Sequence record: OZ035811.1
Reading direction: 5' to 3' (one strand)
From: Dhillonvirus LM40P1
DNA length: 45,013 nucleotides
The notes under the pieces were generated by a model. The model did not search any database. It was not told the DNA's origin and worked only from the letters and a program-made list of their open reading frames with translations. Position numbers and translations under genes: made by a program. Positions 25,815 to 30,548 of the stretch are shown in pieces; the first letter of the stretch is position 1, and each line of letters starts with the position of its first letter.

Positions 25815-26285
25815 TTATTTAAGTGCGCGAGTTACCAGTGTTTTTTCCATATTGCGGAAGTCTTCCTCGGTCATCTGGATTTTCGACCCGTCTTCACCGT
25901 ACAGCGTCACCAGCGGTTGAGCTTTCGCTAAAACTCCCTTCGGCAGCGACCACGCATCAACCTGTTTCTTCAGGCTTTCCAACTGCGCTGCCGTTACGTC
26001 GATCTGGATCTCGTCATGCACAGTTGTGTAAGACTCACCCAGTAGCGCGGAATATGCCACTAAATCCACAATGTTATCTTCCTGGTGTTTACGGGTCTGG
26101 CGTACCAGCTTCAGGCAAATCATAAATACCCAGGCTTCTTGCTCGGTAAGGTCACGACCGGTTAGTGCGTTGAATACGGCAGCGATCTGTTTAGCGCTGC
26201 GTTCTTCTTTGCTGTCATATCCATTTTCTTTCCCGCGCTGTTCCATAGTGGTGGCGGCGTTTTTGCAGTATTCGAATGCTTTCAT
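25815..26285 (-). CDS. hypothetical protein
   Basis: ATG at 26285 with AAGGAGAT SD; first gene downstream of promoter at 26331-26359. Confidence 0.5.
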   Translation of the reverse strand: MKAFEYCKNAATTMEQRGKENGYDSKEERSAKQIAAVFNALTGRDLTEQEAWVFMICLKLVRQTRKHQEDNIVDLVAYSALLGESYTTVHDEIQIDVTAAQLESLKKQVDAWSLPKGVLAKAQPLVTLYGEDGSKIQMTEEDFRNMEKTLVTRALK

Positions 26286-26363: not shown

Positions 26364-26585
26364 TTATTTTAATTCCTCAATCAAATTGGCACGGACAATA
26401 CGGGCCGAGAAGGCATCGCACACAAGATGGCAACGCGCCGTCATGACAAGCCAGCCGGTTAGGTCACGGCCTAGCAATTGCTCCGGGCGGCTTACCCGCA
26501 ATACTTTATTTCCAGGGAAAACCTGGTAACGTTTAATGATCTCATCCACGACGCGCGGACTGCGATCGACGACTAAGATATTCAT
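26364..26585 (-). CDS. hypothetical protein
   Basis: ATG at 26585 with AAGGAG SD; 73 aa. Confidence 0.45.
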   Translation of the reverse strand: MNILVVDRSPRVVDEIIKRYQVFPGNKVLRVSRPEQLLGRDLTGWLVMTARCHLVCDAFSARIVRANLIEELK

Positions 26586-27051
26586 GTAGTTCTCCTTCGC
26601 TCATTATCTTGATTTGTGCGCTGCCGTTTGGTGGCGCTTCTTCAAAGATTATCAGTTGCTGACACTTGTTGTTGCTCGGTCCAACCTCGCCAGTGACGGC
26701 ATGGATAAACCGGATCCGCCAGTCCAGCAATATAATCAGGTTGGCGGTTTTCCGCGCCAGTTTGGCCCACTTCGTGGTCGTGTCCTGGTTAAGCAGCATT
26801 ACCGTTTTGCGACCCTGCGATGCGCAAGTCACCCACGGCAGCGGGTCGGAATACGGCGGATTGCACCACTTCCACCCGTTTAACTCTGACCAGTCCGCAT
26901 CAAGCGCGCTGTGCTCTTTCGTGAAGTAGCGCGGTAGCAAATGGTTGTGGTCACTCGCCGCCATGTCGTAACGGAATTTAAACGCCTTGCGCAGTGGTTT
27001 GAATAAGGCTGGCGGAGTGCGCCAGCTATCCTTCTGCTCATTCTCCGTCAT
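26542..27051 (-). CDS. DNA N6-adenine methyltransferase (phage Dam-type)
   Basis: NPPY motif in WCNPPYSDPLPW; ATG at 27051 chosen over the upstream in-frame extension. Confidence 0.6.
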   Translation of the reverse strand: MTENEQKDSWRTPPALFKPLRKAFKFRYDMAASDHNHLLPRYFTKEHSALDADWSELNGWKWCNPPYSDPLPWVTCASQGRKTVMLLNQDTTTKWAKLARKTANLIILLDWRIRFIHAVTGEVGPSNNKCQQLIIFEEAPPNGSAQIKIMSEGELHEYLSRRSQSARRG

Positions 27052-27744: not shown

Positions 27745-27791
27745 CGTCAAATCCTCATATTAAAAAAGGGCGTTCCCTTCAGAACACCCCC

Positions 27792-27825: not shown

Positions 27826-28149
27826 TTATTCGAAGAAATTTGGGTCGCTCATCACATCCACTAGATAAAGGTTGTTAAGGCGGTTGCCGTAATGGCCTGG
27901 CGTGCGCTGACGGCACACAACAGCGTAACCAGGGGGGATGGTATTTCCGGTCGCCAGAATCCACGCCACGCGCGCGCCGTTTAGTGATTTACCGTTGTAT
28001 TCTATGCGGGTGCCGCCATCTGCAGTGTTAAGGCTGCCAATCTTCTGACCGGTAGAATTGAGACGGATAACACCAGTCTGGCTATCGTAATTAAACAGTT
28101 GTTTGGTCAGTGCTACCGAAAAATCAATTGGATCAAAGATAGTGTTCAT
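27826..28149 (-). CDS. HNH endonuclease-like protein (possibly degenerate)
   Basis: Segment ARVAWILATGNTIPPGYAVV...GHYGNRLNNL resembles the HRLxW...IPxG...DHxNGN...NL pattern of phage HNH proteins. Confidence 0.4.
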   Translation of the reverse strand: MNTIFDPIDFSVALTKQLFNYDSQTGVIRLNSTGQKIGSLNTADGGTRIEYNGKSLNGARVAWILATGNTIPPGYAVVCRQRTPGHYGNRLNNLYLVDVMSDPNFFE

Positions 28150-28862
28150 TTTAAATTTTCCTCATTGACTGCAATTGCGAAGCCGCGCGGTGTGAGCGAC
28201 CTGATTAATTTAGTGCGGGCGGACTTACCACCGAGCAGACTATACTGTTTGGAGTAACCTTTTTCAACAAATACCGGCTTCTTCTCCGGCATCCTGAAGC
28301 CGTTCCCCGTCCATAAGCAAGTCAGCTTCGGATATGAATCACGCGCGTTGATATATTCCGGGAATAGCGGGTGCACATCATCTTCCGGCAGGTAGCCGCC
28401 ATACTCCCACGGGTTAAACGAGTGATCTGGCTTGCGCCACTGGGTGGATAGCACACTGCGCGGATTCTCTATCATATATGGCACTTCGAAGAAGTCACCG
28501 AGAAAGGCCGCTATCTTAGCGGTGCGCACTGCCTTAATCTGGAATGCTGGGTCTTTAGCGCGTTTGCGCGGGAAAGCTGGCGCGCCGCTAACTGCCAGGT
28601 CGGTGCACGGCGGAAAGGCGTAAATAATATCAGGCGTGCCAAACTCACCCTCCATAGCGCGGTCAACGAAGTCCAGATCGATAAACACGTTCTTATAACG
28701 AATGCCGCGCCCGTAAAGCCGGTAGTGATTGTAGGAGCCGTGGTCGGCCCCGTCGAAGTTAAAACAGGTGCACTTATGCCCCATCTCGGCAGCACGCTCG
28801 ATCATAAGGCCGCTGCCGTCGAATAATGACCAGATGTTTAGTATCCTAACTCGCTTATTCAC
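28146..28862 (-). CDS. mini DNA cytosine-C5 methyltransferase-like protein
   Basis: Motif I SLFDGSG, motif IV FPPC (Pro-Cys), motif VI IENP in canonical order and spacing; GTG start overlapping helicase stop (GTGA); only 238 aa. Confidence 0.5.
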   Translation of the reverse strand: MNKRVRILNIWSLFDGSGLMIERAAEMGHKCTCFNFDGADHGSYNHYRLYGRGIRYKNVFIDLDFVDRAMEGEFGTPDIIYAFPPCTDLAVSGAPAFPRKRAKDPAFQIKAVRTAKIAAFLGDFFEVPYMIENPRSVLSTQWRKPDHSFNPWEYGGYLPEDDVHPLFPEYINARDSYPKLTCLWTGNGFRMPEKKPVFVEKGYSKQYSLLGGKSARTKLIRSLTPRGFAIAVNEENLK

Positions 28863-30319
28863 TTGCGGCCCCGCTTCTTCTCTTTCATGTAGTCCATCAG
28901 TTCATCCTGGATGTCGCGCTTACCATCACGGCGGCTTGCCACTAACTCGTCGAGCGTGCCGCGGGCCTGGATAATGTAGACGAATACCGGGCGCGGGTGT
29001 CCGGCCTGCATCTGGCGCACCGGTCCGATACGTTCGACGATCTGCGCGAAGTGCTCAAAGTTCCACGTATCCGAGAAGATAGCGAGGTGGTGTCCGCCGT
29101 CCTGTAAGTTAAGACCGTGGCCTGCCGATGCCGGGTGTGCAAACATGATCGGAATCTCGCCCCGGTTCCACGCTTCCATATCCTTAACGCCTTGCTTGCC
29201 CTTACCCATTGCGACACCCTGCGGGAATTTCTTCTTAAGGCGGGCTAGGTCGTGCTTGTACTGGTAGGCCACAAGCAGCGGTGCGCCGTTAAGTTCTTCT
29301 ACGATACTTTCCAGGGCGTCAAGTTTGGCGTCGTGGATTTTCTCCCACTCGTCGGTCCGCTCGCCGTCGTCGTCAACCTTATACACAGCGCCAGATGCAA
29401 GCTGGAGGCATTTAATCGTCTTAGCGGCAGCGTTGGCGGCCTCCACTGTTCCGCTTTCCAATTCGGCGAATAGCTCGCTTTCAAACTGGTCGTAGATCTT
29501 GCGGGCTTTCTTCGGTAGGTCTACCAGTACCGGCGTATAGATCGGCTTGTCGCAACCGAAGTATTCAGCCGCGTCAACGGTTAGCGAAATGTCAGCCAGC
29601 TTTGCGTGAATCTCTTTTTCGGAGTTTTTCAGCGGGGCGTGCTGCATAGTGAAGCTGCCAGGTGCAACCGGTTTACTGATAAACCAGCGGTCGGTGAATG
29701 CCTTATAGCTACTGCCGAGGCGTTCGCCACCGTCAACAAACCAGTTTTGCCCCCACACGTCCTTAAGCCCGTTTGGTGCTGGCGTGCCCGTCAGGTTAAT
29801 CCAGCGCTTGACGTGCTTATGTGCGATCGCCGCCAGGGCGCGTGCGCGTTTACTCCCCTGCGTGCTGCGATATCCTTTCAGCTTAGTTGATTCATCGGCA
29901 ACAACGACCGTAAAGGGCCATTCCTCTCCGCAATAGTTCACAAGCCACTCAACCACATCATAATTCACGCACACGACGTTAGCGCCGCTCTCAAGCGCTG
30001 TAATGCGGTCCTTCTCTGGTCCCGTGCCGTCCACCACCTGAAGCGATGAGAATCCCCATTTATCTTGTTCCGGGGGCCACGTACCGGACGCAACGCGCAA
30101 CGGGGCCAGCACCAGCACGCGGTCTTCTCCGTGGTTCAGTATGCCGGTCTGGAACATTTTGTTCAGCGCCCACATGGTAGCGCCAGTCTTTCCCGATCCC
30201 ATCGTCGCCCAGATATTACAGCGGGCGTGTTTAATGATGAAAGACGTGATTAACTTCTGGTACTCGCGCCTGCGAAAACGTGCCATCTTGTTACGCCTTT
30301 TTCCAGACTTCTGTTTCAT
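28859..30319 (-). CDS. SNF2-family ATP-dependent helicase
   Basis: DExx box VVADEST, motif III LTGTPAPNG, C-terminal helicase motif HGLNLQDGG; start at 30319 (GAGGAA SD), alternative 30286. Confidence 0.75.
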   Translation of the reverse strand: MKQKSGKRRNKMARFRRREYQKLITSFIIKHARCNIWATMGSGKTGATMWALNKMFQTGILNHGEDRVLVLAPLRVASGTWPPEQDKWGFSSLQVVDGTGPEKDRITALESGANVVCVNYDVVEWLVNYCGEEWPFTVVVADESTKLKGYRSTQGSKRARALAAIAHKHVKRWINLTGTPAPNGLKDVWGQNWFVDGGERLGSSYKAFTDRWFISKPVAPGSFTMQHAPLKNSEKEIHAKLADISLTVDAAEYFGCDKPIYTPVLVDLPKKARKIYDQFESELFAELESGTVEAANAAAKTIKCLQLASGAVYKVDDDGERTDEWEKIHDAKLDALESIVEELNGAPLLVAYQYKHDLARLKKKFPQGVAMGKGKQGVKDMEAWNRGEIPIMFAHPASAGHGLNLQDGGHHLAIFSDTWNFEHFAQIVERIGPVRQMQAGHPRPVFVYIIQARGTLDELVASRRDGKRDIQDELMDYMKEKKRGRK

Positions 30320-30512
30320 GGTGCCAATTCCTCGTCGTAGCGGTCCAGTTAAATTCGTGCCCCACATGCACGCCGGTCGCCCGGAAGCCTTTAAACTTCT
30401 GCCAGCACACAGTTAACGGCAGCGGCTCGCGCATTGCGGCGATATACCATACGCGATCGCCGGGTTTGCAGTCGCCCAGTGTGGTAAGGCGGTAATGTTC
30501 TTTCATCGTCAT
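30291..30512 (-). CDS. hypothetical small protein (KPGDRVW motif)
   Basis: ATG at 30512 with GGAGAC SD; 73 aa. Confidence 0.45.
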   Translation of the reverse strand: MTMKEHYRLTTLGDCKPGDRVWYIAAMREPLPLTVCWQKFKGFRATGVHVGHEFNWTATTRNWHHETEVWKKA

Positions 30513-30548
30513 GTCTCCAAAAAAGGCGGGACTAGCCCGCCATGTTGA

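Follow-up and report, generated by a model that had tools for sequence, protein, structure and literature searches.

The window analysed here is a stretch of 45,013 nt from Dhillonvirus LM40P1 (OZ035811.1), and its minus strand carries, at positions 28146–28862, a gene of 238 codons for a compact Dcm-like DNA C5-cytosine methyltransferase (MTase), with a GTG start and a TGA stop. Dhillonviruses are HK578-like siphophages of E. coli. The MTase gene lies between a SNF2-family helicase gene and a small HNH endonuclease-like gene, all on the minus strand, and the three form a chain of 4 nt overlaps that can be read directly from the sequence. The MTase start overlaps the helicase stop (GTGA, 28859–28862), as an earlier note on this DNA had stated, and the HNH start in turn overlaps the MTase stop (ATGA, 28146–28149). 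The same chain is annotated in phages Envy, welsh, Bas85 and SECphi4, and the 3 kb region around the MTase gene is 97.4% identical to phage Ioannina.

The junction with the helicase gene reads (A/G)TGA in seven Dhillonviruses. Three of these (Envy, welsh and SECphi4) carry ATG exactly at the MTase start position, and the GTG start call is therefore sound. The clade that includes LM40P1 uses GTG and has a 21 nt (7-codon) insertion just after the MTase start. Only a weak Shine-Dalgarno-like signal (GGGG, at −10 to −7) precedes the GTG; the HNH gene has a GAGG Shine-Dalgarno sequence within the 3′ end of the MTase gene. The GTGA overlap probably couples translation of the MTase to termination on the helicase gene.

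The gene evolves under strong purifying selection, with dN/dS values of 0.056–0.070 against four Dhillonvirus orthologs (dS about 0.9–1.0, dN about 0.055). It is also dispensable, because the viable Escherichia phage vB_EcoD_Opt212 (NC_073055.1, 18665–18865; locus L076:3007-3207 in the retrieved set) has lost the catalytic core of the MTase by a clean, natural in-frame deletion. The remnant of 66 aa reads MTIAKMTIWSLFDGSG followed directly by FRMPEKK (junction FDGSG/FRMPEKK), and it retains both 4 nt overlaps, with the helicase and the HNH genes. This deletion could represent escape from a methylation-sensing defence.

Family, motifs and predicted fold

The MTase is an ordinary member of a large and known family of compact phage C5-MTases. 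In the PHROGs database, phrog_757 ('DNA methyltransferase') matches residues 8–236 (E = 1.9e-80). Relatives were found by tblastn in 1514 phage records (Escherichia, Klebsiella, Salmonella, Shigella, Vibrio, Arthrobacter and others), and 1501 were present in a large protein collection. A profile search of 1.84 billion representatives returned 1962 clusters (50% identity) at E ≤ 1e-3, of which 857 reached E ≤ 1e-10, and almost all of the top 150 are 200–280 aa long; the median length of 117 full-length homologs is 232 aa. When prokaryotes were scanned with each species represented by a single genome, 62 loci turned up across many phyla; these are presumably prophages. Two UNVERIFIED Klebsiella phage records (L011, L012), which have no intact open reading frame (ORF), were left out.

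The finding is already known, since Dhillonvirus records annotate the gene as a cytosine methyltransferase ('cytosine specific methyltransferase' in Ioannina, 'C-5 cytosine-specific DNA methylase' in welsh; orthologs are also annotated in JLBYU37, Envy and Bas85) and a relative from phage K42 has been characterised. This very common phage family lies outside the curated hidden Markov model (HMM) libraries (Pfam, NCBIfam and PADLOC), and because of this gap many GenBank records name the orthologs 'hypothetical protein', and some starts are placed downstream of the conserved one. The Ioannina coding sequence is annotated from a later start, giving a 53 nt gap to the helicase gene in place of the overlap; this start would correspond to Met20, and motif I would be left out of the product. 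A dedicated family model would correct hundreds of annotations.

Two more distant branches of mini-MTases were seen in bacterial genomes (Sphingomonas, Haematospirillum, Clostridia and the candidate phyla radiation) and in actinophages (L038:3848-4399, L058:3848-4411, L047, L055, L061, L051 and others; also L020, L023, L029, L032 and L010:2483-3133). Proteins of about 185–195 aa follow the pattern ACE(F/Y)SG...HPPCTDLAVSG...ENP...QPWQFGHGETKATCLWL...RSKTxxGIAxAMAxQWG, and those of about 215–225 aa have LCDLTG instead of motif I. Both branches retain PPCTDLAVSG and ENP, their AdoMet (S-adenosylmethionine) loop is degenerate, and neither is covered by a Pfam or NCBIfam model. In Vibrio phage 1.184.A._10N.286.49.A5 (MG592550.1, 22308–23182), the tblastn match falls into two pieces and spans 875 bp for 224 residues, suggesting that the gene is interrupted by about 200 bp of inserted sequence (intron, intein or some other element) or that it is frameshifted.

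The earlier note had recognised C5-MTase motifs I, IV and VI in canonical order, and the translation bears this out: FDGSG at residues 14–18, PPC at 84–86 and ENP at 132–134, with spacings (about 70 residues from I to IV and about 48 from IV to VI) that resemble those of M.HhaI. In the textbook numbering of M.HhaI the corresponding residues are F18, C81 and E119. Motif I (F14-D-G-S-G18, 28809–28823) is the glycine-rich AdoMet-binding loop after strand beta1; it occurs as F.G[SA]G in 115 of the 117 full-length homologs and aligns with FxGxG of M.HaeIII, with LFDG of DNMT3B and, by hhalign, with canonical phage C5-MTases. Motif IV (P84-P85-C86-T87, 28602–28613) contains the predicted catalytic nucleophile, Cys86, which is invariant in all three family alignments (A1, A3 and A4, progressively broader) and aligns with the PC of M.HaeIII, DNMT3B and E. 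coli Dcm. Motif VI (E132-N133-P134, 28461–28469) lies on strand beta5 and supplies Glu132 as the predicted N3-protonating residue. The departures from the PCQ and ENV consensus that had been pointed out are real, Thr replacing Gln and Pro replacing Val, and because they are near-invariant among the homologs (PPCT in 116/117, ENP in 117/117) they are family signatures rather than signs of decay. Residues C86, E132 and P134 are invariant even in A4 (31–55% identity).

Residue-level alignments ended at motif IV, and motifs VI to X were therefore mapped from the secondary structure of a predicted model. On that model, ENP is equivalent to ENV by position and fold rather than by residue-level alignment. 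A motif VIII-like segment, Y177-P-K179-L-T181 (28320–28334), is placed directly before strand beta7 (residues 181–186). The pattern Y.K.T occurs in 116/117 homologs (K is followed by K in 97 and by L in three), K179 is at least 90% conserved in A4, and the arginines of the QxRxR motif VIII are missing. Judged by its position, Y177-P-K179 may represent motif VIII, and K179 would then functionally replace the arginine.

Between beta7 and the C-terminal helices the model has about 27 residues with one short helix, a mini target-recognition region at residues 187–213 (NGFRMPEKKPVFVEKGYSKQYSLLGGK, 28224–28304), and the canonical target recognition domain (TRD), about 80–100 aa or more between motifs VIII and IX, is lacking. 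This loop, which probably takes part in DNA recognition, has two family-wide variants: GYSxQ in 89/117 homologs, including the LM40P1 protein (GYSKQ...LGGKS), and NPGW in 26/117, including K42/KarlJaspers (DNPGW..GGKS). The C-terminal block R221-S-L-T-P-R-G-F-A-I-A-V-N (28164–28202), delimited by conservation, includes the helix that closes the fold (residues 226–236 in the model). Residues R221, S222, G227 and A231 are invariant or nearly so, and the C-terminal helices of the family are conserved as LGGKS..RTK.IRSLTPRGFA.AV; the block is probably motif IX/X-like.

The model, predicted by AlphaFold2 from 38 sequences (mean pLDDT 90.7, pTM 0.89), shows seven strands in class-I MTase order, that is, a class-I SAM-MTase fold with the C5-MTase arrangement. 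The structural comparison proposed in the earlier note thus favoured its assignment: the top 50 Foldseek matches in the PDB were all DNMT3A, DNMT3B or DNMT1. Full-length family members in BFVD (225 aa) match the model at TM 0.78–0.90. The protein is far shorter than typical C5-MTases, as had been claimed, at 238 aa versus the 324-position PF00145 model and the 320–390 aa of solved bacterial enzymes, and as modelled it amounts to roughly the bare seven-stranded catalytic domain of a C5-MTase. At the level of profiles, PF00145 touches 25 of 38 close relatives (E ≤ 1), three of them above the 22-bit gathering score (28.5, 25.4 and 24.7), with matches confined to profile positions 4–95, corresponding to motifs I–IV. 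When PDB sequences were searched with A3, every match at E ≤ 10 was a C5-MTase (M.HaeIII and DNMT3B among the solved ones), and hhalign of A4 with seven canonical phage and E. coli C5-MTases gave E = 7.8e-4 at a probability of 25%, over motifs I–IV only.

Activity of a related enzyme and the proposed function

Phage K42 is a relative of KarlJaspers/Bas06 (Drexlerviridae, Hanrivervirus), and four of four K42 escapers of retron Ec86 (Eco1) disrupt a 711 bp 'dcm' gene (Wang et al., bioRxiv 10.1101/2023.08.16.553469). According to the same preprint, K42 dcm expressed alone is toxic only when Ec86 is present, and its product raises 5-methylcytosine (5mC) on the multicopy single-stranded DNA (msDNA) of Ec86, as determined by LC-MS (liquid chromatography coupled to mass spectrometry). 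A C82A/E128A/K175A/K176A mutant causes neither the toxicity nor the rise in msDNA 5mC. The authors also mention toxicity of Dcm itself, and report that 34 of 35 Ec86-sensitive phages of the Drexlerviridae, Siphoviridae and Demerecviridae carry a Dcm of this kind. Peer-reviewed papers published since then cite the Ec86/Dcm result as established, and the BASEL study found C5-cytosine MTases to be abundant in these small siphoviruses. A literature search for Drexlerviridae methylomes and Dhillonvirus 5mC turned up only the Ec86 preprint. The Dazbog, Nhi-like, Asa1 and Squ1 triggers were set aside as other MTases.

KarlJaspers has a 711 bp gene annotated as 'Dcm-like C5 cytosine methyltransferase', and the LM40P1 MTase is 54% identical to its product over 231 aa (BLASTP, E = 1e-86). 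The ortholog of phage aaroes, with 93% DNA identity to the KarlJaspers gene, has C, E, K and K at residues 82, 128, 175 and 176, as in K42 Dcm. Residues C82, E128 and K175 of K42 Dcm correspond to C86, E132 and K179 of the LM40P1 protein.

The LM40P1 gene very probably encodes an active orphan AdoMet-dependent DNA cytosine-C5 methyltransferase of the compact phage Dcm-like family (phrog_757). The gene is genuine and under selective constraint, and its product has the C5-MTase fold, the conserved motifs and clear homology to K42/KarlJaspers Dcm. The earlier note's view of a mini C5-MTase is thus upheld, by the invariant catalytic motifs and by a 54%-identical ortholog reported to make 5mC in vivo. 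Among the three roles it had offered, that of an orphan anti-restriction methylase has the most support: the gene lies within the replication module and has no restriction partner, its neighbours being the helicase and small HNH genes, with a dam gene nearby and no PADLOC match to a restriction-modification or defence system. A non-specific enzyme is less likely, and a repurposed fold is disfavoured.

On the model of M.HhaI and DNMT3, motif I (F14xGxG18) would bind AdoMet and the target cytosine would be flipped out; Cys86 of PPC would then attack C6, Glu132 of ENP would protonate N3, Lys179 would take the role of the motif VIII arginine, and the methyl group would be delivered to C5. The site would be read by the catalytic loop together with the loop of about 27 residues (187–213) that replaces the usual TRD of 80–100 residues, and the enzyme may work as a dimer, like DNMT3. 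Encoded by the middle gene of the helicase-MTase-HNH cassette and made from the transcript of the replication module, it would likely methylate replicating phage DNA at a defined short site, allowing the progeny to resist 5mC-sensitive restriction. The price would be that retron Eco1 (Ec86), and perhaps other defences that sense methylation, can detect this mark.

Neighbouring genes

The helicase gene (28859–30367, minus strand) is a maximal ORF of 502 aa matching PF00176 (E = 4.6e-9) and phrog_62 (E = 2.4e-154). The 474 aa helicase of Jerseyvirus LP31 is 66% identical and aligns from Met28 onwards; the start is probably the ATG at 30286, as in orthologs, giving a product of 475 aa, and the 502 aa ORF would be over-extended. 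The HNH gene (27826–28149, minus strand; 107 aa), the last of the cassette, matches phrog_99 (E = 1e-13) and is annotated as an HNH endonuclease in relatives, with Pfam HNH_3 reaching only E = 0.17. An HNH and MTase mini restriction-modification pair was considered and rejected, the linkage being absent in Hanrivervirus, KLB16, Krischvirus and others and the Pfam HNH match being weak.

About 1 kb downstream of the MTase gene, a phage Dam (N6-adenine MTase; 26542–27051, minus strand) provides the second DNA-modifying enzyme that had been expected. It matches PF05869 (E = 2.7e-37, residues 41–182 of the long ORF), phrog_111 (E = 3.9e-54) and TIGR01712 (E = 1.3e-24); the maximal ORF extends to 27174, and the likely start is the ATG at 27051, giving 169 aa. 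A DUF6378 protein (25815–26285, minus strand; PF19905, E = 2.8e-10) is called 'DNA N-6-adenine-methyltransferase' in Ioannina (L001 3843-4313), which looks like a misannotation, the real Dam being the PF05869 gene at 26542–27051.

A consensus scan placed a terminator-like GC hairpin with a T-run just upstream of the helicase gene (30525–30541, minus strand) and another terminator-like hairpin with a T-run just downstream of the HNH gene (27766–27791, minus strand). Bracketing the cassette in this way, they suggest a discrete transcription unit. No tRNA genes (ARAGORN) and no Rfam families at the gathering threshold were found in the 45 kb window.

Target site, rival explanations and known systems

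Several observations weigh against the reading as an active Dcm-like C5-MTase, or against carrying the K42 results over to it. The profile search suggested by the earlier note gave a divided answer: the strong phrog_757 match stands beside the lack of any Pfam or NCBIfam match at E ≤ 1 for the MTase protein. A PADLOC scan had no match for the MTase, and phmmer against the PDB returned only a spurious kinase match (E = 0.49). PF00145 reaches E ≤ 0.01 in only two of 49 diverse members, and family profiles built from the three alignments reach solved C5-MTases only at E of about 0.2–1, never below about 0.2, and over motifs I–IV only. The C5-MTase assignment rests on structure, relatives and literature, not on curated HMMs. 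Activity is reported for the K42 ortholog, in a preprint, and catalysis by the LM40P1 enzyme would follow by homology. The second lysine of K42 Dcm, K176, is Leu180 in LM40P1, and the effect of K175A/K176A is known only within the quadruple mutant. The recognition loop also differs (GYSxQ in LM40P1, NPGW in K42), and because of this the specificity of K42 Dcm is not simply transferable. The CCWGG site was taken over from E. coli Dcm and assumed by the K42 authors (bioRxiv 10.1101/2023.08.16.553469). Their work used dcm+ MG1655, where the host Dcm did not trigger the retron, and in BASEL the presence of these MTase genes did not relate to restriction resistance in any simple way.

For the LM40P1 MTase, CCWGG is the leading, though unproven, candidate site. 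Ec86 no longer defended against K42 once either C of the msDNA CCTGG had been changed (bioRxiv 10.1101/2023.08.16.553469). In the LM40P1 genome CCWGG is not avoided (156 observed, 151 expected), which is weakly compatible with protection of this site and neither proves nor disproves it as the target. Under-represented sites are GAATTC (1 observed versus 8 expected), CTGCAG (3 versus 14) and CCCGGG (0 versus 7), and also GGCC (167 versus 231), GGWCC (55 versus 84) and GATC (155 versus 203); GCGC is not. The enzyme might instead be an active C5-MTase that does not act on the inner C of CCWGG, and would read a shorter or degenerate site, modify the outer C, favour hairpin or single-stranded substrates, or be nearly non-specific for want of a real TRD; this is a possible but distinctly less favoured explanation. 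Pointing to it are the short stretch between beta7 and the C-terminal helices, the two loop variants that separate the LM40P1 MTase from K42, the toxicity of Dcm itself mentioned by the K42 authors, and the closest solved folds, DNMT3A and DNMT3B, which read only CpG. In addition, msDNA 5mC was 'low' without the phage gene, a point not discussed by the authors (bioRxiv 10.1101/2023.08.16.553469), and MG1655 Dcm does not fire Ec86 whereas the phage enzyme does. Because the dcm+ host does not self-activate its retron, the site, substrate or dose of the phage enzyme must be different from that of host Dcm. Set against another specificity are the loss of Ec86 defence when either C of the msDNA CCTGG is changed, and the avoidance of 6 bp palindromes, which would be needless were most cytosines methylated. 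The close relatives welsh, aaroes and SECphi4 were, moreover, isolated on E. coli K-12 MG1655. This strain carries McrBC, which cleaves R-5mC DNA. A fully non-specific MTase is unlikely, because it would be expected to sensitise the phage's own DNA in McrBC+ K-12. A related and tentative proposal is that of a minimal C5-MTase in which site recognition needs no canonical TRD and uses the loop of about 27 residues, perhaps as a DNMT3-like dimer, with a specificity or substrate unlike that of host Dcm. If true, this would account for the firing of retron Eco1 by the phage enzyme, and not by host Dcm, in a dcm+ host, and hundreds of phage genes would carry a 'Dcm-like / CCWGG' label that is wrong for at least one loop variant, including that of LM40P1.

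The remaining explanations change the function of the protein itself. Its SNF2 neighbour might supply access to DNA, making the MTase a functional partner of the helicase in the manner of DNMT5, DDM1-DNMT or DISARM DrmD/DrmMII. The overlapping junction is conserved in the genus Dhillonvirus, where the MTase gene lies directly downstream of the helicase gene, and in Jerseyvirus the orthologous helicase (66% identity) again adjoins and overlaps the MTase. The order there is reversed, with the MTase gene directly upstream; in Hanrivervirus the helicase is unrelated (E = 0.11) and two genes away, and in Sashavirus, KLB16, Krischvirus, SF1-1 and Cote none is adjacent. K42 Dcm alone methylates msDNA and triggers the retron, and the similarity of the LM40P1 helicase to DrmD, DpdE and ZorD is at a generic SNF2 level (24–35 bits). 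A functional partnership is accordingly unlikely. The coupling to the helicase claimed in the earlier note stands as real gene packing, and does not extend to a functional pairing conserved across the family. In Salmonella phage LP31 (Jerseyvirus, L080:2495-4595), where the MTase gene comes before the helicase gene, the mini-MTase is 62% identical to that of LM40P1; it has either moved, or was acquired independently, beside the same helicase. Two proteins of uncultured Caudovirales in BFVD, A0A6J5SE15 (1397 aa) and A0A6J5NPY6 (1126 aa), carry a domain resembling the mini-MTase (21–26% identity, TMq 0.60–0.63), and one of them is annotated 'Helicase/UvrB, N-terminal'. As far as the models go, MTase-helicase fusions of this fold may exist, and such proteins would favour a partnership. 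It is still more improbable that the protein has lost catalysis or been repurposed while keeping the MTase fold, serving for instance to bind DNA or as a decoy against host defences. The failure of curated C5-MTase HMMs, the unusual motifs IV and VI, the missing QxRxR arginines and the degenerate motif I of the distant branches (CDLTG, CEFSG) would fit such a role. Yet F14, G16, G18, P85, C86, E132, N133 and K179 are conserved across hundreds of clusters, the motif deviations are family-invariant rather than recent decay, and the 54%-identical ortholog is active when its catalytic-residue mutant is not. Transfer of another group (such as carboxymethyl from Cx-SAM), or action on RNA or tRNA like DNMT2, is the most remote of these explanations, given that LC-MS found 5mC on DNA for the K42 ortholog and that no cmoA-like or other cofactor gene occurs among the cassette neighbours examined.

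If the LM40P1 protein is an active orphan C5-MTase, then retron Eco1/Ec86, or other defences that sense methylation, may detect the Dhillonviruses carrying it. Natural deletions such as that of Opt212 may be escape variants, which bears on host-range prediction for therapeutic coliphages. At about 190–240 aa, these proteins are among the smallest C5-MTases and could be minimal scaffolds with which to study or engineer DNA recognition.

Compared with the canonical enzymes M.HhaI, M.HaeIII and E. coli Dcm/M.EcoRII (PF00145), the LM40P1 MTase is 90–230 residues shorter, is without a large TRD, and has PPCT for PCQ, ENP for ENV and Y-P-K for QxRxR. No full-length similarity to E. coli Dcm was detectable (hhalign with A1: 25 columns around motif IV, probability 0.3%), and tblastn with E. 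coli Dcm retrieves a different set of phage MTases. Membership of the E. coli Dcm/M.EcoRII group was rejected, as homology to the CCWGG-reading TRD was not found, and 'Dcm-like' is a name of convenience. DISARM (DrmD/DrmMII) and eukaryotic DNMT5 share with LM40P1 a SNF2-family ATPase beside a C5-MTase. Membership of DISARM was rejected: the MTase has no PADLOC match, and the helicase scores 24.6 bits to DrmD and 24.9 bits to the NCBIfam DrmD model, versus a cut-off of 950.

The closest solved structures are the catalytic domains of DNMT3A and DNMT3B (6u8p, 6kda), at an identity of only 11–17%. DNMT3 enzymes are about 285 aa, have their own TRD loop and form a tetramer with DNMT3L. The likely source of the resemblance is that both are compact, rather than any specific relationship. 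The K42/KarlJaspers Dcm is much nearer, having the same size (236 versus 238 aa), the same phrog_757 match and the same setting, as an orphan gene in the early/replication region; the phage genus and the gene neighbours differ. The Dhillonvirus members of phrog_757 and pVOG VOG4567 are direct orthologs of the LM40P1 MTase, at the same locus and with the same 4 nt overlaps.

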